Positions 3,757 through 19,903 of a stretch of 64,000 nucleotides of DNA are shown here, one piece after another (within the stretch, counting starts at the first letter, position 1; each line of letters opens with the position of its first letter). The DNA is from an uncultured Thermoleophilia bacterium (GTDB lineage Bacteria; Actinomycetota; Thermoleophilia; UBA2241), in NCBI GenBank assembly GCA_963705085.1, contig CAVPIV010000004.1, positions 794,193-858,192 of the forward strand. Reading direction: 5' to 3'. The notes below the pieces were generated by a model. The model did not search any database, had not been told where the DNA came from, and saw only the letters and a list, made by a program, of their open reading frames with translations. The translations under genes were made by a program, and so were the position numbers.

Positions 3757-7214
<3,458 letters not shown>

Positions 7215-10790: not shown

Positions 10791-11663
10791 TCAGTCTCGC
10801 GAGGCGGGCCGTTCCCCGACCGATCGCAGGCCTGCGATCGGTTCCAGTCTCGCCGTCCCCGCCGCCATCGGGAACTCCGTCGACGGCACGACCGCGTCGT
10901 TCACGAAGTGGTCGAGGTTCGCGGCGATGAAGAAGAGCCCGAGCACCGGCAGAACCGGGAGCACGCCCGTCGAGAGCGCCGCCAGGAACACCAGCGTCAC
11001 CGACAACACCATCGCGACGGCACTGGCCGACTCGCGGAGCCCAAACCGCCGGGCGGCGCCGAGGTAGAGCGCGAAGAAGAGGATGTCGCTGACGCCAATG
11101 GCCGAACGCGCCTCGTTCAGCGAGTAGCCAGACCACGCGATGGCCAGGGTGAACCCACCGATCATCTCGGGGCTGCGATCGAGCAGCACCCTCGTCGGTC
11201 CCATGAGCACGCTCCCGATGTCGGCGAACGACGACGCCAGGACGAACAGGACGATCCAGCTCCTGGCGGCCATCCCCTGCGCCAGCCAGAGGCCCAGAAC
11301 CGCCGCCAGGAGCACCTTGGCGAGATTGGCCAGAGGGATCGCGTGGAAGGCGATCATGAGCATGGCGAACGGCAGAATGACGGCCGCCACGAGCAGCAGA
11401 TGGTGCCCGTACGCGTCAAGCGTCGCCATCCCCCAGAGGACGATGACGACGAGCGTCAGCGAGACGAGCGCTGAGAGGACCGCGTTGGTGTCGTCGGGGA
11501 GGCGCGGCAGGTAGTGACTCCCGTAGCCCCACGCGACCAGGAGGGCACCTGCGGCGACCGCACACCGCTGGCGAGGCGAGAGATCAGTACGGCGGAATGC
11601 TGTCGTACCATTCGCCGAGCCGACGAAACGCCCGCCAGAAATCGGCCTTGAGTCTCTGCTCAT
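10791..11663 (-). CDS. Hypothetical polytopic membrane protein (start uncertain; N-terminus overlaps UDG 3' end)
   Basis: Multiple hydrophobic helices; ORF 10791-11675. Confidence 0.45.
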   Translation of the reverse strand: MSRDSRPISGGRFVGSANGTTAFRRTDLSPRQRCAVAAGALLVAWGYGSHYLPRLPDDTNAVLSALVSLTLVVIVLWGMATLDAYGHHLLLVAAVILPFAMLMIAFHAIPLANLAKVLLAAVLGLWLAQGMAARSWIVLFVLASSFADIGSVLMGPTRVLLDRSPEMIGGFTLAIAWSGYSLNEARSAIGVSDILFFALYLGAARRFGLRESASAVAMVLSVTLVFLAALSTGVLPVLPVLGLFFIAANLDHFVNDAVVPSTEFPMAAGTARLEPIAGLRSVGERPASRD

Positions 11664-12186
11664 CGAGGGACGCATCGATGTCCGGCGTCACCAGAACCTG
11701 GGTTCCCGGCGTGAACTCCACGATCTCGCCGGGCTTGTACTCAAGGGGACGTCCGAGCGGCACCCCAGCCCTGTTGAGGGCCGCCACGGCCTCCTCTCCC
11801 ATGACCACTATAAGCTTTGGACTGACGGTTGCAAGCTCCCGGCGGAGGTGCTCCAGGCAGCGCTCCTCCGGCTTCTCCCCGTGCACGTCGCCGCACTTGA
11901 CGACGTTGGTGCCGTAGAGCTGCAACGGGTCGATCTTGAGACGCTGGCAGCTCTTCATCAGCGCCGCCCCGGAACGACCGAAGAACGCCACGCCCTCGTG
12001 CAGCTCTGAGGGCCGCGCCTGGTACTTGAGCAGGAAGATGTCGGCCATGGGGTGGCCGGAGCCGATGACGGGCATCGTGCGAGCGTGGCGGCAGCGCGTG
12101 CACCGCAGGATCTCGCCGGTGAGATCGTTGATCTCCGAGATGGCTCTGGTCAGGTACTTGTCGTAGATCTCGTTCGGCTGGGCCAC
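11584..12186 (-). CDS. udg: Uracil-DNA glycosylase, family 4 (4Fe-4S)
   Basis: CTRCRHARTMPV, GSGHPMADIFLL, NVVKCGD motifs. Confidence 0.85.
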   Translation of the reverse strand: MAQPNEIYDKYLTRAISEINDLTGEILRCTRCRHARTMPVIGSGHPMADIFLLKYQARPSELHEGVAFFGRSGAALMKSCQRLKIDPLQLYGTNVVKCGDVHGEKPEERCLEHLRRELATVSPKLIVVMGEEAVAALNRAGVPLGRPLEYKPGEIVEFTPGTQVLVTPDIDASLDEQRLKADFWRAFRRLGEWYDSIPPY

Positions 12187-12260: not shown

Positions 12261-13061
12261 TCAAACGTCCCCGGACCATGACTCGGGAGGCCGCTGCTGG
12301 TCGCTCCTGGGCGGCCCAGCCAGCGTGGTCTGGAGGAGCTTGAGGGACTGCAGGTAGAGCAGGCTGCGCGGATGACGCACGACACGGCTCTCGGCCAGAG
12401 CCCCCACGAAATCGTCGGGTCCCTCGAAGTCGTCCATACCGCACAGAGCGGTGCCGATCCCGGGCAGCACGTGGGAGTCGCTGCCGGCCGCCGCGGGAAT
12501 GCGGTAGCGCACGGCGAACTGCTCCGCGAGCTCGTTGAACCCCGGGAAGGCCAGCCGCGAGTTGAACACCTCGATCACGTCGATGTCGGCGACGTTGGCC
12601 CGCAGGACACGAGGGCTGGGGATCGTGTGCAGCCGGTCGAACGGATGAGGCACGTACACGATGCCGCCCTGCTCCTTGATCGCGGCGATCGTCTCGGCAA
12701 AGGTCATGCCGCCGGGGATGGTCCTCTCGAGGAAGAGCCCGATCACCTCGCCCTCGCTGCTCTTGACCTCCTCGCCCACGATGACGCGCACGCCGTAGCG
12801 ACCGGCGATCTCGCGCGCCTCCAGACCTCCCTCGGCTGTGTCGTGATCGGTGATCGCGACGACGTCGAGGCCGACCTCGCGAGCACGCTCGAGGATGTCG
12901 GCCACGGGCATCACGCAGTCCTTGCTGTGGTGCGAGTGGATGTGGAAGTCGGCGAAGATCTCGCGCTGCTGACGGCAGGCGACGCGGAAGAGGCCGGCGA
13001 CGGCGCGCGGCCACTTCGTCGTAGATTCCCTCGATCTCGCCGGCGACGCGATCCCAGTCAT
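12261..13061 (-). CDS. PHP-domain metal-dependent phosphoesterase
   Basis: HIHSHHSKD, AITDHD, HP..DSH PHP motifs; ATGA overlap with upstream glycosyltransferase. Confidence 0.8.
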   Translation of the reverse strand: MTGIASPARSRESTTKWPRAVAGLFRVACRQQREIFADFHIHSHHSKDCVMPVADILERAREVGLDVVAITDHDTAEGGLEAREIAGRYGVRVIVGEEVKSSEGEVIGLFLERTIPGGMTFAETIAAIKEQGGIVYVPHPFDRLHTIPSPRVLRANVADIDVIEVFNSRLAFPGFNELAEQFAVRYRIPAAAGSDSHVLPGIGTALCGMDDFEGPDDFVGALAESRVVRHPRSLLYLQSLKLLQTTLAGPPRSDQQRPPESWSGDV

Positions 13062-14175
13062 AGCGCCGCGCAGCTGTCCTGCGCCGCGGCCGCGAGCCGG
13101 GAGCGCAGGTCGCCGTCGTCGAGCAGGCGCTGGATGGCCCGCGCCAGCAGTCGCGGCCGGCGCGGCGGCGTCAGGATGCCGTTGACCCCGTCGCGCACGA
13201 CCTCGTCGTAGCCGGGCAACTGGGACGCGACCACGACGTCGCCGCTGGCCATGGCCTCGAGCAGAGCCATGCCCGCAGTCTCCGGCCCGAGCGAGGGCGC
13301 GCAGAAGACGTCGGCGCGCCGGTATAGGTCGGCCACCTCCTCTTCCGAGACGCGGCCGTGGAAGGTGACCCGGCCGTCGAACGCCGGCGGGATCAGGCTG
13401 GCGAAGCGCCACTTCTGGTCGTCGGCGCCGCACACGTCGAGCACGAGTTCGGCGGCGCGATGCTCGAGCAGGCGGAGCGCCCGCAGCAACACGGTGAGCC
13501 CCTTGCGCCGCGAGTCGGCGGCCGCGAAGAGCAGGCGCAGAGGGCCCTGCTGTCTGCCGTCGCCAGGCCGGAACAGGCCCAGGTCGACGCCCGGCGGGAT
13601 CACCCGGTAGGCGCCCGGGAAGACCGCCGCCGCGACGTCTCGCGACGCCTGCGACGACGCGATGGCGGCATCGAGCGAATCGAACAGGCGGCGGAGCTGC
13701 GGACGCGTCGCCCAGAAGGGCTTGAGCAGCTCGGAGTTGGCGTGGAACGTCGCCACCAGCGGGCAGTTGGCGTGGCGCAGCGTAGTCCAGCCCACGCCCG
13801 GCACGAACGGCTCGATCAAGTGCAGCACGTCGAAGTCCTCGGCCTCGAGCAGGACGTCGACGTTGGCGATCAGGTCGGCCGGGGCAGCGATGAGCCTGAT
13901 CTCCTTGCTGTAGGGCACGCGGTAGGTCTCGCCCGGCGAAGAAGTAAGCGCGGCGAGGGCTCGCCCGCCACGAACACCGTCTCACGCTCGCCGGTGAGAA
14001 CGGCCTGTACCCGCCGCCGCGCCTCGTCGAGCTGGCCGCGGTCGCCGCTCGGCGCGATGACCGTCACGCAGTGGCCGCGCGCCGCCAGGCGACCGGCGAG
14101 ATCGCGCACCTGCCGGTTCACGCCGGACGGCTCCGTCCAGGCGTAGGGCGTCAGGATTCCTATCTTGCGCCGCAT
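13058..14175 (-). CDS. GT4 glycosyltransferase, PimA-like, interrupted by a 32-bp insertion (frameshift)
   Basis: N-terminus MRRKIGILTPYAWTEPSGVNRQVRDLA..ETVFVAGE in one frame, TYRVPYSKEIRLIAAP..DFDVLHLIEP..GT1 C-domain (EAMASGDVVVAS) in another; removing 32 nt restores a PimA-like join. Confidence 0.8.
13928..13967. other. 32-bp insertion with flanking 8-bp direct repeat CTCGCCCG inside the PimA-like gene
   Basis: ctcgcccg-gcgaagaagtaagcgcggcgaggg-ctcgcccg; the insert is comparatively AT-rich. Confidence 0.6.
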
Positions 14176-14230
14176 ACCTCGTATGGTACCGCACCGGCCG
14201 GCTGGAGCCGGAACGGGCGACGGCGGTCGA

Positions 14231-15334
14231 TCAGCCTTTGCACACGGCGGTGGCAGCGGGGCCTTCGCCGCTGATGAAGTCCTCCGTCATGCGCCGGCAC
14301 ACGTCGTCCGGATGCTGGATCGGCGGAGATTTCATGAAGTAGCTGCTCGGACCCTCGAGCGAGCCCGCGAGGCCGCGATCCCGCCCGATCTTGGCGCAGC
14401 GGACGGCGTCGATGACGATGCCCGCCGAGTTCGGCGAGTCGACGACCTCGAGCTTGAGCTCGATGTTGAGCGGCACGTCGCCGAAGGTGCGGCCCTCCAT
14501 GCGGATGTACGCCCACTTGCGGTCGTCGAGCCACTCCACGTAGTCGCTCGGCCCGATGTGCACGTTCTTGGCGCCCATGTCGTAGTCGAGCTGGCTCGTC
14601 ACCGCGTTGGTCTTGCTGATCTTCTTCGACTCGAGCCGCTCGCGCTCCAGCATGTTGAGGAAGTCGGTGTTGCCGCCCACGTTGAGCTGGCTGGTGCGCT
14701 CCAGGCGCACCCCACGCTCGCGCATGAGCCGCGTGAGCACACGATGGACGATGGTGGCGCCGACCTGGCTCTTGATGTCGTCGCCGATGACCGGCACGCC
14801 GGCCTCAACGAATCGCTTCTGCCAGTACGGCTCGCGGGCGATGAAGACGGGGATGCAGTTGACCATGGCGCAGCCGGCCGTGAGGATCTGCTCGGTGTAC
14901 CACTTGGTGGCCTCTTCGCTGCCCACGGGCAGGTAGTTGACCACGACGTCGGTCTGGGTCTCGCGCAGGATGCCGACGATGTCGGCGGTCGGGCCGGGGG
15001 CCTTCTCGATGATCTGCGAGAGGTACTTGCCCAACCCGTCGTGGGTCATACCGCGCACGACCTTGACGTCCTTCCTGGGCACGTCGCAGAACTTCACGGT
15101 GTTGTTGGGCTTCGTGAAGATCGCGTCGCTGAGATCGACGCCGACTTTGTTCTTGTCGATGTCGATAGCCGCCACAAACTCGATGTCGCGGACGTGATAC
15201 CCCCCGACCACCGGGTGCATGAGTCCAGGGACGAAGTCCGACTTCTTGGCGTTCTTGTAGAACTCCACGCCCTGCACGAACGACGAGGCGCAGTTGCCGA
15301 CGCCGATGATCGCCACACGCACTGGATTGCCCAA
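14231..15334 (-). CDS. ino1: myo-Inositol-1-phosphate synthase
   Basis: [12 protein letters not shown] Rossmann motif, SYNHLGNND-like core, full-length similarity to bacterial/archaeal MIPS; TTG start 9 nt after GGAGGT. Confidence 0.9.
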
Positions 15335-15402
15335 GACCGGTGTACCTCCACTCCCTGCGGCCGGACTGCGGCCGCTTCGCTGCGCAGCACCCCGCTGGAT
15401 TC

Positions 15403-15414
15403 GGAAGCGCTTCC
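15403..15414. promoter_or_regulatory. Perfect 12-bp palindrome GGAAGCGCTTCC in the ino1 5' region
   Basis: Seen in sequence about 70 nt upstream of the ino1 start; candidate operator. Confidence 0.25.
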
Positions 15415-15552
15415 TGCCGGGCTCACGATAACGCGCGAGAGTATACCACGGCGCCTGCCGGGACCCGGGCCGGTCCGGCGGGCCTGTCGCCGAGGCGGTC
15501 GCGCTGCGGGGGCGCCGTGAACCGTCCGGTCGCCGCCGGGGCTGCGGCCGCG

Positions 15553-16167
15553 TCAGCCCTGGGCGCGCAACTGGCGCATCACGTGGCGGATGCGGGTCAC
15601 CACGGTGATGGGCGTGAGCACGGCAATCAGGTAGACGAAGAAGGTGAGGATGCTGACGCCGGCGATGGACACACCGGCGAAGACGAAACCGAGGAGGAGC
15701 CCGACGACGCGCTCGGGGCGCGACATGAAGCCGATCTTGCACTCGGCGCCGAGCGACTCGGCCCGCGCTCGCGTGTAGGAGACCATCTGGGCCGAGCCCA
15801 GCGCCACAAGCATCGCCACCGCCTCGTACCAGCGCTGCTCGCGAGCAAAGAAGAAGATGAGCGCTCCCGAGACGAGCATCTCGGAGATGCGATCCGTGGT
15901 CGAGTCGAGAAACGCTCCCGCCTTGGTGGTGCCAACGCCGGCCCGCGCCACGGCACCGTCGAGGCCGTCGCACAGGGCGGCGACGATGAGGATGATCGCC
16001 GCCCAGGTGAAGTAGCCGATCACGACCAGAGGCACCGCGACGGCGTGCAGGACCAAACCCGCGATCGTGAGCATGTCGGCGGTCACGCCCCAGCCGGCCA
16101 GCGTGACGCCGAGACGGGCGAAGCCGCGCCGAGACTGCTCGGTCCAGGTCGTCTTGAGGCTCTTCAC
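15553..16167 (-). CDS. CDP-alcohol phosphatidyltransferase (phosphatidylinositol-phosphate synthase-like)
   Basis: DG..DG.AR..G....G...D...D motif ([12 protein letters not shown]...DSTTDRISE), about 6 TM helices; adjacent to ino1. Confidence 0.85.
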
Positions 16168-16337
16168 GCCGGCCGCCGCGTTCTGGTTGTGTCAGACGCC
16201 ATCCGTGGCACGATATCAGAGCGCAAAAAACGCGGCCAACCGTGTGCGGGTCTCGGCCGCCGGAGCACGCACGAGATGGCCCGAGCACGAGCGCACGTCC
16301 GCCACCCGTTCCGCCTTGTCGCAGGAGGGCACAGCAC

Positions 16338-16727
16338 ATGGCCAAAAAGACGCCCGCCGAGAAGATGCACTGCAAGCCGGGGCTGAGCGTGGCGCTGCTG
16401 CACGCGCCCGAAGGAATGCGCGAGGCGCTCGGCTTTCCCGAGAACGCCATCTACACGGACGATCCCGGCTCTGCCGCCTTCATCCTCGCCTTCGCGACCA
16501 CCCAGGCCGAAGCGGAGGGGACCCTGACCGACCTCGCCCCTCACGTCCGCGACACGACGCTGACCTGGGTCGCGTATCCCAAAGGTTCCAGGGTGGCCGG
16601 CCGCGACGTCAGCCGCGACACGGTGTGGCGGTTCGCGCCCTCCGTCGGCCTGACGCTGGTCGCCAACGTCGCCATCGACGAGACGTGGTCGGCGCTCCGT
16701 CTGAAGCCCGACACAGAGCGAAGGTAG
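16338..16727 (+). CDS. Hypothetical protein
   Basis: ORF with SD AGGAGG 9 nt upstream of ATG; coding-like composition. Confidence 0.5.
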
Positions 16728-17041
16728 GCCCCGGTCACGCCGGCTGGAACGGGGCCCTGCGAACACACGGCGTCACTCCTGTATGCAGTCCTGGCTACGT
16801 TCTCTCACGGAATCGCCGTCGTACGCCGGGCCGAGCCCGCAAACGCGGGTATAGTCGTCGTGAGAGAGTGGGGAGGCCGTGCGCACTGCCGCGAGCAGCG
16901 TCCTGTCTGACGACGGCCGTGCACGCGTGGGCACGCTCTGTGCAGGCCGCCCGCCCCGGTGCGGGGCCCCGACCTGTGGTGCGCTGTGCTTCTCCGCAGC
17001 GCCCGCGGCCGGCGATCGAGGGTGAGCAGGAGGTCAATCAC

Positions 17042-18553
17042 ATGCACGATGCCTTGCCCGTCGGACGCATGAGCTTCCTCACGGAGTCCGACAAGGAGGC
17101 GATCTACGAGGCGTCCGTAGAGATCCTCTCCGATGTCGGCACGCTCGTCTCTCACGCCGAGGCGACGGCCGTGCTGACGACGGCGGGCTGCCGGGTGGGC
17201 GAGAACGGCCGTGTGCTCGTTCCGCGGCACGTCCTCGAGCGGGCGCGGGAGACAGCACCCGCGGTCGTCGACGTCTTCGACCGTAGCGGCGAGCCGGCCA
17301 TGACGCTCGGGGGCACTCGTACGTACTTCGGGACAGGCTCCGACCTCCTGAACGTCTACGACCTGGAGAGCGGCGAGCATCGCCCCAGCAGCCTCGACGA
17401 CGTGGCCCGTGCGGCGCGACTCGTCGATGGGCTCCCCAACCTCGACTTCGTGATGTCGTCGGCCTACCCGAACGACGTACGCCCCGGCCACTCGTGGCTG
17501 CTGGCGTTCGCGACCATGATGCGCAGCACCACCAAGCCGATCGTCGCCGTCGCCGACAGCGGGGCCGACCTCGGCGCCATCTGCGGCCTCGCCGCCGCGC
17601 TGAGGGGGGGCGGCGACGAGCTGCGCCGCGCACCCTACTTCATCGTGTACGACGAGCCGACGAGCCCGCTGCAGAACCCGGCCTCCAGCGTCGACAAGCT
17701 GCTCCTGTGCGCCGCGGCCGGCGTGCCGGTGTGCTACGTCCCTGCCATGATGGCCGGCGCCACCGCGCCGATCACCGTCGCCGGTCAGGTGGCTCTCGGG
17801 ACGGCGGAGTCGCTCTTTGGACTCGTCCTCCACCAGCTGTACCGGCCCGGGGCGCCGTTCATCTACGGGCACGGTCACCCGGTGCTCGACATGCAGTCCG
17901 CGCAGAGCACGTACAACTCGGTCGAGGGGTACCTCTGCGAGATGGCCATGGTGGAGATGGCAAAGTGGCTGGACCTGCCCAACTTCGGCAACGCCGGGAC
18001 CAGCGACGCGGAGCTCGTCGACGCGCAAGCCGGCATGGACATCATGATCGAGACGCTCCTGGTGATGCAGGGCGGCTCCAATCTCAACCACAATGCCGGC
18101 TACCTGGACTTCGGCCTCACCGGGTCGCTGGAGGGCATCGTCATCACCGACGAGGCCATTGCCTTGTGCCGCCGCCTGCTCCGCGGCATCCGCGTCGACC
18201 GGGAGACCCTGGCGGTCGACGTCGTCGCCGCCGTTGGCCCGGGCGGCCACTTCCTCGGCCAGCCGCACACGCGGAAGCACCTGCGTACCGAGCAGTGGCG
18301 ACCGACGATCCTGAATCGCGACGGCCGCGAGGCATGGGTGCGCCTCGGTCAGCCGGACCTGCGGGAACGGGCCCGGTTCAAAGCTCTCGAACTGCTCCGC
18401 GAGCACGCGCCGCAGCCGCTCACGCCGCCGGTCGCCGAGTCGATCGACCGCCTGCTGGCCCGCTCCCTCGAGGAGTTGGGCGGCGACACGGAGCCCGCTC
18501 CCCTCTCGCCGAGCGTCACGGCAGTGTCATCACCACCGACAGCCCATGAATAG
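17042..18553 (+). CDS. MttB-superfamily methyltransferase (trimethylamine / glycine-betaine-type corrinoid methyltransferase), no in-frame amber
   Basis: 503 aa TIM-barrel MttB family similarity (VGENGRVLVPRHVLERA...YFGTGSDLLNVYDLE...ITDEAIALCRRLLRGIRVD); SD AGGAGG; uninterrupted ORF ending in TAG. Confidence 0.85.
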   Translation: MHDALPVGRMSFLTESDKEAIYEASVEILSDVGTLVSHAEATAVLTTAGCRVGENGRVLVPRHVLERARETAPAVVDVFDRSGEPAMTLGGTRTYFGTGSDLLNVYDLESGEHRPSSLDDVARAARLVDGLPNLDFVMSSAYPNDVRPGHSWLLAFATMMRSTTKPIVAVADSGADLGAICGLAAALRGGGDELRRAPYFIVYDEPTSPLQNPASSVDKLLLCAAAGVPVCYVPAMMAGATAPITVAGQVALGTAESLFGLVLHQLYRPGAPFIYGHGHPVLDMQSAQSTYNSVEGYLCEMAMVEMAKWLDLPNFGNAGTSDAELVDAQAGMDIMIETLLVMQGGSNLNHNAGYLDFGLTGSLEGIVITDEAIALCRRLLRGIRVDRETLAVDVVAAVGPGGHFLGQPHTRKHLRTEQWRPTILNRDGREAWVRLGQPDLRERARFKALELLREHAPQPLTPPVAESIDRLLARSLEELGGDTEPAPLSPSVTAVSSPPTAHE

Positions 18554-18715
18554 GCTCTCCCGCGCTCGCCCCCGTGCGGCCAGGCTCGAGCACACGCGCC
18601 ACTACCTGCTCCTCAAGAACACGGCCAAGAGGCTGGCGCCCGCCCTCGTCAAGCTGCCGCGGCCCGTCGACGACACCGACACATCGAGCATGTGCAGCGG
18701 AGATCGCCTACGTCA

Positions 18716-19701
18716 TGGCGTGGCCGCCTGAGGTGACCAAGCCCACCGTCGGTCTGGTCAAGGACCCCGATGTGCCGCCCTACTGGACGAAATACAGGCG
18801 CTTCCTGGAGGCGAACCAGATCCCCTACCGCCTGTACGACATCCACCGTTCCGACTGGCGCACCCGCGCCGCTGACCTGGACCTCGTCCTCTGGCGTCCC
18901 ATGAGCTTCCCCTACGAGCTCGAGGAGTGCCGTCGCAAGTTCTGGCTGATGGAGAACGTGCTCGGCAAGCTGTGCTATCCCTCGCTGGCGGAAGCCCTCA
19001 TCTACGAGGACAAGCTGCTCCAGTACGAGCTCCTCCAGCATCACAACTTCCCGGTCGTGCCCACCTTCGTCTCGCACAGCGAAGGCGAAGCGCTCGCGTT
19101 TGCGGCATCCGCGTCCTATCCGGCCGTGTGGAAGATCGGCTGCGGGGCCGGCTCGCTGGGGGTCGAGCTGGTCAAGGATCGGCGAGCGGCGGTGCGGCGG
19201 ATCCGACAGGTCTTCTCGTTCGCCGGCCGCCGCACCTACTGGCCGTACGCCGGTCAAAAGGACTACGTGTACCTGCAGCGTCTGGAACCAAACGCCGGCT
19301 ACGATCTCAGGGTGATGGTGATCGGCGACACGATCCTGGGCTACCACCGAGCGGTCCCGCATGGCGACTTCCGCGCCTCCGGCATGGACACGACCTACCA
19401 CCGCTCGATCCCCGAGGGGGCCATCCACCTCGCGCGACGCGTACGCGATGCCCTCGGCCTGACCATGCTCGCCCTCGACATGCTGGCCGATCGCACGGAG
19501 CGCCGCTTCTCAATCATCGAGGTCTCGCTCTTCACGCAGATCAGAGAGGAGTTCAAGCTCGAGGTCGACGGCGTCACGGGATCGTATCGCCCGGACGGCG
19601 ATGGCTACCGCTTCGTTCCGGGACGGGTCGTTCCCCACGACCTGATGCTCGAGGAGCTCCTCATGACGAAATGGATAACGCCGCGAGGCGCAACGGGGTG
19701 A
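18716..19701 (+). CDS. ATP-grasp domain protein (RimK-like); possible N-terminal extension from 18546 via a +1 frameshift
   Basis: ATP-grasp fold motifs (AVWKIGCGAGSLGVELV, YDLRVMVIGD, IEVSLF); upstream ORF 18546-18731 is coding-like and overlaps the mttB stop. Confidence 0.65.
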
Positions 19702-19709
19702 GGATCCGG

Positions 19710-19785
19710 TGGTGGGCCGTGAAGGATTCGAACCTTCGACCTTGGGATTAAGAGTCCCCTGCTCTACCAGCTAAGCTAACGGCCC
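19710..19785 (-). tRNA. tRNA-Lys (anticodon CUU)
   Basis: Cloverleaf GGGCCGU..anticodon loop CUCUUAA..T-loop GGUUCGAAUCC..ACGGCCC-A-CCA; 76 nt with encoded CCA. Confidence 0.85.
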
Positions 19786-19903
19786 ACGTGACGGGGCGTC
19801 ATCGTACCAGTCCGCAGCGCGCTTGCCAAACGGACCCGCGCACCCCCGCGGAGGGGCGGCGTCGCGCCCGGCGACGTCGCCAACGGCGTGTTCCGACGCG
19901 GCG

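Follow-up and report, generated by a model that had tools for sequence, protein, structure and literature searches.

A PimA-like glycosyltransferase fused to a PHP phosphoesterase in a Thermoleophilia phosphatidylinositol operon: a candidate phosphatidylinositol-phosphate phosphatase

We analyzed a 64,000-nucleotide stretch of DNA from an uncultured soil bacterium of the Thermoleophilia (contig CAVPIV010000004.1, assembly GCA_963705085.1; hereafter the window, by which we mean the whole stretch), which has a G+C content of ~69%. Positions 12261-16167 encode, co-directionally on the minus strand, a phosphatidylinositol-phosphate (PIP) synthase-type transferase (PIPS), then myo-inositol-1-phosphate synthase (MIPS; ino1), a PimA-like glycosyltransferase of family GT4, and a PHP phosphoesterase domain with PHP_C. 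The domain calls and coordinates that a first-pass annotation had assigned to these four co-directional genes are correct, as judged by Pfam, NCBIfam, and PDB matches. The best explanation of the locus is a Thermoleophilia phosphatidylinositol (PI) operon. A scan for promoters and terminators between 10500 and 17000 found none that exceeded shuffle expectation. PI and its mannosides (PIMs) are essential envelope lipids in Actinobacteria, including Mycobacterium tuberculosis.

Relatives of the window PHP were collected from two sources. A scan of species-representative genomes returned 515 loci that encode such relatives; the best 80 of these are all metagenome-assembled genomes (MAGs) of Thermoleophilia, from Solirubrobacterales, Thermoleophilaceae, Gaiellaceae, Conexibacter, and Paraconexibacter. 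Gene content was counted by tblastn with the window proteins in the 62 loci that have at least 5.5 kb of upstream sequence (genome loci). JGI metagenome contigs, scanned separately with a seed from another sub-clade, yielded 20 loci with enough flanking sequence (metagenome loci).

By sequence, the transferase is a member of the inositol-phosphate-using clade of PIP and archaetidylinositol-phosphate (AIP) synthases. This CDP-alcohol phosphatidyltransferase (15553-16167, minus strand; 204 amino acids [aa]; PF01066, E = 5.7e-15) carries the family motif D-x2-DG-x2-AR...G-x3-D-x3-D in the form DGLDGAVAR...GAFLDSTTD. Its top NCBIfam models are AIP synthase (NF040950, 144.6 bits) and PIP synthase (NF045883, 124.6 bits), both below the equivalog cut-offs but more than 70 bits over other CDP-OH families; the Bacteroides PIPS model scores 110 bits and the next family, DIPP synthase, 50.8 bits. 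The best PDB match is M. tuberculosis PgsA1 (6h53, 2e-19), followed by the PIP synthases of Renibacterium and M. kansasii (5d91/6wm5). A role in di-myo-inositol-phosphate synthesis was rejected on the low DIPP synthase score and because the transferase has no cytidylyltransferase domain. The next gene (14231 to ~15337, minus strand; ~368 aa) encodes myo-inositol-1-phosphate (inositol-3-phosphate) synthase, matching PF01658 (9.8e-38, 129 bits) and the whole of TIGR03450 (553.7 bits over profile positions 1-355 of 355), for which the cut-off of the mycothiol-type equivalog is 638. It is 91-95% identical to its orthologues in the three closest genome relatives, L006-L008.

The PHP domain is intact and its metal-ligand motifs are complete. 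It occupies 12261-12975 on the minus strand, as the C-terminal part of the fusion described below, and matches PF02811 (41.5 bits, 2.3e-10, cut-off 26.4) and PF13263 (41.2 bits, 1.2e-10, cut-off 21.3). The pattern DxHxH, DH, E, PHPFD, GSDxH is represented by DFHIH, TDHD, GEEV, PHPFD, and GSDSH, and the residues D5, H7, H9, D15, H40, E65, H106, D162, and H164 are invariant in alignments of 13 and of 24 diverse relatives. By analogy, these individual residues would be the ligands of a tri- or binuclear metal site.

Family models place the domain outside the characterized PHP enzymes. The scores fall far short for histidinol-phosphatase (NF004981, 18.3 bits against a cut-off of 117), 3',5'-nucleoside bisphosphate (pAp) phosphatase (NF041577, 46.3 against 400), RNase RNM, or RNase AM (NF047791, 42.3 against 375), and phosphoribosyl cyclic phosphodiesterase (40 against 500). 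Models of the Pol III/PolC PHP domains, whose cut-offs are 870-1650 bits, reach ~20-25 bits and match no more than the first ~70 residues. No polymerase domain was found in the PHP-bearing open reading frame (ORF) by a Pfam scan or in the ORFs of relatives, so the protein is not a Pol X or Pol III. Thus, histidinol-phosphatase and DNA polymerase X, the identities that the first-pass annotation had set against its own proposal, do not account for the domain. The model that it matches best, with 72 bits against a cut-off of 80, is the generic one for the CehA/McbA metallohydrolase domain. Sequence matches in the PDB are weak, from 1e-9 at best to 1e-5, with Cv1693 and RNase AM at 1e-6 to 3e-5.

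The GT4 and PHP coding regions most likely make up one gene with a single fusion protein as its product, as judged from reading frames and alignments. In the assembly, the GT4 part (12990-14175, minus strand; Glycos_transf_1 and Glyco_transf_4) is spread over three frames. Three-frame translation puts its N terminus in the frame of ATG 14175 and its middle in a second frame, terminated by TGA 13058; the C-terminal segment ‘RRYDWDRVAGEIEGIYDEVAARRRRPLPRR’ is back in the first frame, and the PHP lies in the third. A blastn DNA alignment with the closest relative, L006, places four apparent 1-nt insertions in the window, all read on the minus strand. Two of them, near 13946 and 13931 (13931-13946), shift the GT4 frame twice; these were located by setting the homologue peptide ‘PRYFFAG(A/E)TY’ against the three frames. 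A third, near 13072 (13058-13075), is the source of the false TGA 13058, past which the GT4 C terminus ‘RRYDWDRVAGEIEGIYDEV’ carries on in another frame at a point where homologues are uninterrupted. The fourth, near 12977 (12975-12980), falls at the GT4/PHP junction. Read in this way, ATG 13061 and TGA 13058 are artefacts of indels.

Relatives encode the fusion without interruption. The junction ‘...RRRQPLPRRRRQQRE(L/V)FADFHIH’ lies in a single frame in P0002, P0003, P0004, P0007, and P0267, the last of which is an uninterrupted fusion from the same 90% cluster as the window PHP. L006-L008, whose PHP domains are 88-91% identical to that of the window (91% in L006), each have one unbroken GT4-PHP ORF of ~640 aa. 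Fusions of 570-705 aa form at least 20 independent clusters among the 50%-identity representatives, and the GT4 N-domain and PHP share an ORF in 59 of the 62 genome loci. The first-pass annotation had read GT4 and PHP as two genes translationally coupled through an ATGA overlap. This is ruled out by the three-frame reading, the L006 alignment, and the intact ORFs of relatives: the overlap is created by the insertion near 13072.

The frameshifts are most simply explained as indel errors of the assembly, because the essential dnaK gene (Hsp70; ~4261-6150, minus strand) of the same window is also broken: its sequence runs through three frames and switches between them at least four times in the first ~1 kb. 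Indel errors are therefore clustered in the window, and ORF-level inference there needs frame correction. A crude hidden-Markov frame tracer based on GC3 flagged the dnaK region; its power was too low to tell frameshifts from gene boundaries. The ‘MFD’ contig_N assemblies, the source of many relatives, are presumably long-read. A different account would be that the GT4-PHP gene is a decaying pseudogene in this genome, or that the PHP part alone is expressed from ATG 13061. The four frame-breaking insertions do fall within ~1 kb, in the GT part or at the junction, leaving the PHP domain intact, while the adjacent PIPS, MIPS, and uracil-DNA glycosylase (UDG)-like genes are clean. However, the state of dnaK demonstrates that this assembly contains such clusters of errors, and compensated frameshifts are also found in other MAGs of the lineage (P0012, P0021, and L002). 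Furthermore, every GT4 piece is still well conserved (71-83% identical to L006) and free of in-frame stops and deletions. We regard loss of the gene, or expression of the PHP part alone, as very unlikely.

The fusion is linked to PI genes across Thermoleophilia. MIPS is present in all 62 genome loci and in 18 of the 20 metagenome loci, PIPS in 60 and 17, respectively, and a GT4 N-domain lies directly upstream of the PHP in every locus of both sets (62/62 and 20/20). The same context surrounds the divergent fusions P0156 and P0134 (48-52% identity). The ~1-kb contig of L090 has, between MIPS and UDG, a PHP of this clade that stands alone (226 aa); L004 and L091, which like L090 carry stand-alone, more distant PHP homologues, are also contigs of ~1 kb. 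The conserved linkage that the first-pass annotation had offered as a check is thus strong, within Thermoleophilia only, and it is a property of this PHP clade, not of all PHP_C proteins.

The cluster also varies in layout. In L012 (2617-6824), and likewise in L013, L015, L017, L040, and L049, 2-5 kb of unrelated genes separate ino1 from GT4-PHP, so the operon is not always contiguous. The L012 insert encodes an AMP-binding enzyme, an enoyl-CoA hydratase, and a Big-domain protein; as members of unrelated families, these were rejected as pathway genes. L111 and L117 have neither MIPS nor PIPS within ~5 kb upstream. In L002, a second PHP_C protein (14298-14951, minus strand; 217 aa, 22.5% identical to the window PHP) is encoded ~5 kb downstream of the cluster, adjoining a YjbQ-family gene; it is a paralogous stand-alone PHP.

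The glycosyltransferase (GT) module derives from PimA. Its frame-corrected translation has the two-domain GT-B architecture (Glycos_transf_1, 1.4e-32; Glyco_transf_4, 2.6e-21), and its best solved relatives are the PimA structures 4n9w/2gej (2.5e-39), followed by chain 7qsg (3e-16), MshA-type 3c4q/3c48 (~1.7e-14), and PimB' (6e-5). An MshA- or MshA2-type identity was rejected since PimA is far closer and TIGR03449 scores 82.7 bits against a cut-off of 462. In an AF2 model of P0056, a natural protein that joins a GT4 N-domain straight to PHP (pLDDT 81, pTM 0.78), Foldseek finds PimA 4n9w as the best glycosyltransferase match of the N half, and RNase AM, TM0559, PsfC, BAD_1165, and Cv1693 as matches of the PHP half.

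Catalytic residues of the GT are lost in most relatives. Aligned with PimA, the window GT4 retains K202, E274, and E282, with R196 replaced by Ala. Only the window, L006, and L007 have all three of K202, E274, and E282, with L009 keeping part of the set (R/E/E); L008, with 88% PHP identity, already has K202 replaced by C and E274 by A. Most Solirubrobacterales and Thermoleophilaceae have mainly G, A, or P at K202, A or R at E274, and R at E282. Most relatives thus lack all four of R196/K202/E274/E282, or the entire C-domain: in ~25 loci the C-terminal Rossmann domain is gone, and the N-domain and final helix are joined straight to PHP (e.g., P0056 and P0105). The resulting GT4N-PHP proteins of 425-455 aa, with a clean deletion of the GT-B C-domain, occur in L011, L018, L022, L023, L025, L029, L031, and others. 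Together with proteins that have the C-domain but not K202/E274/E282, they form a series of steps from enzyme to pseudo-glycosyltransferase. Judged by these residues, the GT part is catalytically dead or truncated in most relatives and looks competent in the small clade of the window, and the PimA-derived part seems to have been retained as a scaffold or for recognition. Because GT residues are lost while the PHP ligands are invariant, the conserved, selected activity would be that of the PHP phosphoesterase.

Elements through which PimA meets its acceptor and the membrane are retained in part. In PimA these comprise Y9, Q18, loop 59-70 (Y62, N63, and R68), helix 77-RKVKK-81, and H118 (PMC9202250). 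The GT module keeps the aromatic residue Y9, the pair E95-P96, and H118, with Q18 replaced by Asn. In the window GT4, Y62 is kept, and R68 is aligned in the HMMER alignment and unaligned with MAFFT. The basic helix 77-81 is replaced there by the acidic/hydrophobic segment ‘ADLIANVDVLLEAED’, and in the GT modules of relatives loop 59-70 and helix 77-81 are variable, acidic, or deleted.

PI synthesis in Actinobacteria has been short of one assigned enzyme, the PIP phosphatase, ever since the pathway was revised. The first-pass annotation had assumed as much, and a preprint from July 2026 agrees, describing the mycobacterial enzyme as “long-sought” (bioRxiv 10.64898/2026.07.15.738315). The same preprint proposes EphE, an alpha/beta-hydrolase, for this role, on the grounds of a predicted interaction with PimA and of the loss of PIMs in the EphE mutant. 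The main polar lipid of Conexibacter woesei is PI, and Solirubrobacter has PI and PIM (PMC3035278, PMC10722151); the product of the operon is thus a major lipid in Thermoleophilia.

We propose that the PHP domain takes the ring phosphate off PIP or mannosyl-PIP at the cytoplasmic face of the membrane, beside or together with the PimA-like module; from contextual evidence, namely the fusion, the operon, and the fit to the pathway, we judge this to be only slightly short of an even chance. MIPS would make 1L-inositol-1-phosphate, which the PIPS-type transferase would join to CDP-diacylglycerol to form PIP. The next gene would supply one cytoplasmic protein of ~640 aa, with an N-terminal PimA-derived GT-B module and a C-terminal PHP. 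The PimA-like module would bring the enzyme to the lipid headgroup. There, at the cytoplasmic membrane face, the PHP would cleave the phosphate monoester of the inositol ring, turning PIP into PI or mannosylated PIP into PIM1. In the small clade of the window, the GT module would then mannosylate the product. The broader claim, that this PHP is a new, non-homologous PIP phosphatase and the missing PI enzyme in at least Thermoleophilia, with the GT serving as a docking pseudo-glycosyltransferase in most lineages, is one that we hold tentatively, somewhat below an even chance.

Several features point to this activity. The operon encodes every step of the PI pathway but the phosphatase, and the cluster in the window contains no hydrolase other than the PHP. 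This domain is joined to a module that descends from a PI-using enzyme, remains linked to MIPS and PIPS even in loci whose GT is inactive or missing, and is soluble and cytoplasmic, like PimA. The fusion carries most of the evidential weight, and the proposal of EphE by way of PimA binding fits a phosphatase that is physically coupled to PimA. We also count, as weak support, a short polybasic tail (net charge of at least +3, e.g., ‘KATPAAARRASRERRVRRATRG’) that follows the conserved terminal helix ‘SLLYLQSLKLLQT’ in 60% of 156 relatives and may contact the anionic membrane; the C-terminal tail of the window PHP itself is not basic. The first-pass annotation had advanced the PHP as a plausible PIP phosphatase. 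The PimA-like fusion and the linkage to PI genes strengthen that candidacy, while its ATGA argument is lost; we infer that PIP is the substrate and that the GT module has a targeting role.

Other observations weigh against assigning PIP dephosphorylation to the PHP. The characterized relatives in its branch, the pAp phosphatase Cv1693 and RNase AM, use soluble nucleotides or RNA. Neither loop 59-70, the acceptor loop of PimA, nor its basic helix 77-81 is conserved, so headgroup recognition by the GT module is putative. Linkage to PI genes is seen in Thermoleophilia-type loci only, and a distant stand-alone homologue (P0204/L005, ~42% identity) has no PI genes nearby. The gene is frameshifted in this assembly, probably through assembly error, with real decay of the GT as the alternative. 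In addition, a membrane protein discussed below, PAP2_3, adjoins PIPS in most relatives and could be the phosphatase. Finally, synteny alone is weak evidence in Thermoleophilia, because a gene for a UDG-like protein is equally syntenic.

This UDG-like gene lies directly downstream of the fusion (11584-12186, minus strand) and encodes a family-4-like member of the uracil-DNA glycosylase superfamily (PF03167, 8.2e-12), with scores below cut-off for NF040953 and TIGR00758. It holds this position in 62 of 62 genome loci and 19 of 20 metagenome loci. It is thus as conserved in place as ino1, with no obvious functional reason, and is probably unrelated in function to the PI cluster. Such synteny raises the question of whether the PHP is itself a housekeeping enzyme for nucleotides or RNA ends, similar to RNase AM or pAp phosphatase, that has merely inherited its position. 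Its best structural and sequence neighbors, RNase AM (7ug9), TM0559, and Cv1693, would agree with this, as would the distant homologue of L005, which sits amid tRNA synthetase and HD-domain genes. Yet the PimA-derived fusion is kept across lineages at ~50% PHP identity, even where the GT is non-catalytic, and the equivalog models for the nuclease and for pAp phosphatase score ~1/10 of their cut-offs. A housekeeping role is therefore improbable in our view, and we give it very little weight. The TrpH/COG0613-branch PHPs (Cv1693, 2yb1; RNase AM, 7ug9/9etk; BAD_1165, 3e0f; TM0559, 2anu) do share the fold and metal-ligand motifs of the window PHP. However, they are 16-26% identical to it in structural alignments, and the window PHP is shorter, lacks the insertion domain of Cv1693 and RNase AM, and is fused to a GT-B module.

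PAP2_3 provides the main rival to the PHP as PIP phosphatase. This membrane protein (PF14378) is encoded just upstream of PIPS in 57 of 62 genome loci and 17 of 20 metagenome loci (e.g., L001, 5106-5852; L002, 4428-5219; L003, 4339-5181; L087, 304-1098). By analogy with PgpB-type PAP2 enzymes, it might dephosphorylate PIP, in which case the PHP would act on another phospho-intermediate or on a nucleotide product. The PAP2 family is known to include lipid-phosphate phosphatases, which, with the position beside PIPS, speaks for this assignment. PAP2 active sites, however, usually face away from the cytoplasm, and the canonical K-x6-RP phosphatase motif is not evident on reading of the sequence. 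The distribution argues in the same direction: tblastn finds no PAP2_3 in the whole 64-kb window, and it is also missing near the clusters of L008, L009, L028, and L088, whereas GT4N-PHP is always present. The only curated family that it matches, weakly (8.4e-6), is phosphoinositol-dihydroceramide synthase (NF052609), a phosphoinositol transferase of the Aur1/BT_1522 kind. In the Bacteroides cluster, the transferase is the PAP2-type protein, and dephosphorylation falls to a different one (PMC9246714). PAP2_3 could thus be either a lipid phosphatase or an Aur1/BT_1522-like phosphoinositol transferase, the latter hinting at a further inositol lipid in Thermoleophilia; that it is the PIP phosphatase seems to us unlikely.

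In relatives, conserved genes for PSP1 (20952-20167 in the window) and HMA (20137-19919) are followed by PAP2_3 and then PIPS. In the window, ~3.7 kb (16200-19900) stands in the place of PAP2_3 and encodes, on the plus strand, a 161-aa ORF without a family (16242-16727), an MttB-family methyltransferase (17102-18553; PF06253, 1.7e-81), and an ATP-grasp (RimK-like) protein (18574-19701). These genes look like a local replacement of PAP2_3.

The PHP might instead dephosphorylate a soluble inositol compound, either inositol-1-phosphate, as a substitute for inositol monophosphatase that releases inositol, or, as an MshA2-like phosphatase, a glycosyl-inositol-phosphate made by the fused GT. The gene directly follows ino1, the substrates known for this PHP branch are small soluble phosphoesters, and GT-B N-domains of MshA-type enzymes bind inositol phosphate. 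A synthase-phosphatase fusion is also the pattern found with sugar-phosphate acceptors: in sucrose-phosphate, trehalose-6-phosphate, and mannosyl-3-phosphoglycerate synthase/phosphatase systems, a GT-B enzyme is joined, covalently or operonically, to a phosphatase that clears the phosphate of the acceptor. Those phosphatases, however, are HAD-family enzymes acting on soluble sugars, whereas the fusion considered here joins a PHP, presumably acting on a membrane lipid, to a GT that is often non-catalytic. The GT, moreover, is much nearer to PimA than to MshA-type enzymes, as the scores above attest, and a glycosyl-inositol-phosphate is impossible as a general substrate because the catalytic residues of the GT are lost in most relatives. 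An inositol-phosphate phosphatase encoded in the operon would also be expected to destroy the substrate of the PIPS-type transferase. A soluble inositol substrate is thus quite unlikely, and removal of the ring phosphate of PIP is the function that we prefer for the PHP.

The locus resembles, with differences, two known PI systems. In the mycobacterial PI/PIM operon, which we take to comprise pgsA1 (Rv2612c), an acyltransferase gene (Rv2611c), and pimA (Rv2610c), a PIP-synthase-type transferase and a PimA-like GT4 are encoded together, as they are in the window. The logic of the pathway is also the same, from PIP to PI to PIM1, with the phosphatase step lacking an assigned gene. Unlike that operon, the window has ino1 within the cluster and no acyltransferase or Nudix gene, and its PimA-like protein carries a C-terminal PHP, with the GT dead or truncated in most relatives. 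EphE (ML2297) is, like the PHP, a candidate for this same missing step that was proposed through a physical link to PimA. The two differ in fold, in lineage, and in the evidence, which is a predicted interaction and a mutant PIM defect for EphE and a gene fusion for the PHP.

In Bacteroides, the PIP phosphatase is BT_1525, of the PgpA family, clustered with MIPS, PIPS, and the PAP2-type phosphoinositol transferase (Heaver et al. 2022, PMC9246714). The Bacteroides thetaiotaomicron cluster BT_1522-BT_1526 thus combines MIPS, PIPS, a phosphatase, and a PAP2-type protein, and in Thermoleophilia relatives PAP2_3, PIPS, and MIPS occur with a single hydrolase, the PHP. In contrast to the latter, the Bacteroides phosphatase is of the PgpA family and not PHP, and there is no GT fusion; PAP2_3, for its part, is missing from the window. 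Scanned with Pfam and NCBIfam, the PHP matched PHP-type families alone and gave no PgpA-family match, so the PHP, if it is a PIP phosphatase, would be non-homologous to BT_1525.

Farther downstream, past the UDG-like gene, lies a polytopic membrane protein without a Pfam family (10791-11675, minus strand, core 10899-11531; 46% identical by tblastn to a neighbor in L002). Its gene follows UDG in 7 of 62 genome loci and 11 of 20 metagenome loci. It has a conserved ‘G(V/L)SD(I/V)LFF’ segment, and the orthologue in L088 (10938-11579) gives a sub-threshold presenilin match (E = 2.5e-4). This protein may be an intramembrane aspartyl protease.

The domains of the fusion are in themselves ordinary. 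Among the literature searched, however, we found no paper that ties a PHP protein to PIP dephosphorylation, nor any description of a PimA-like/PHP fusion in a PI operon, of the decay of its GT, or of the phosphatase candidate that results. The family is seen in Thermoleophilia only and does not identify the mycobacterial enzyme. If our proposal is correct, the PHP superfamily would gain its first lipid-phosphate phosphatase, and the fusion would serve, in the Rosetta-stone sense, as a sign that PIP dephosphorylation is physically coupled to the action of PimA in Actinobacteria. The locus documents a GT4 enzyme becoming non-catalytic, which bears on annotation: the proteins are now labeled “glycosyltransferase” or “PHP domain-containing protein.” The conserved fusion supports the idea of a phosphatase that works in a complex with PimA, and it opens a long-standing question to direct test in one class of Actinobacteria.

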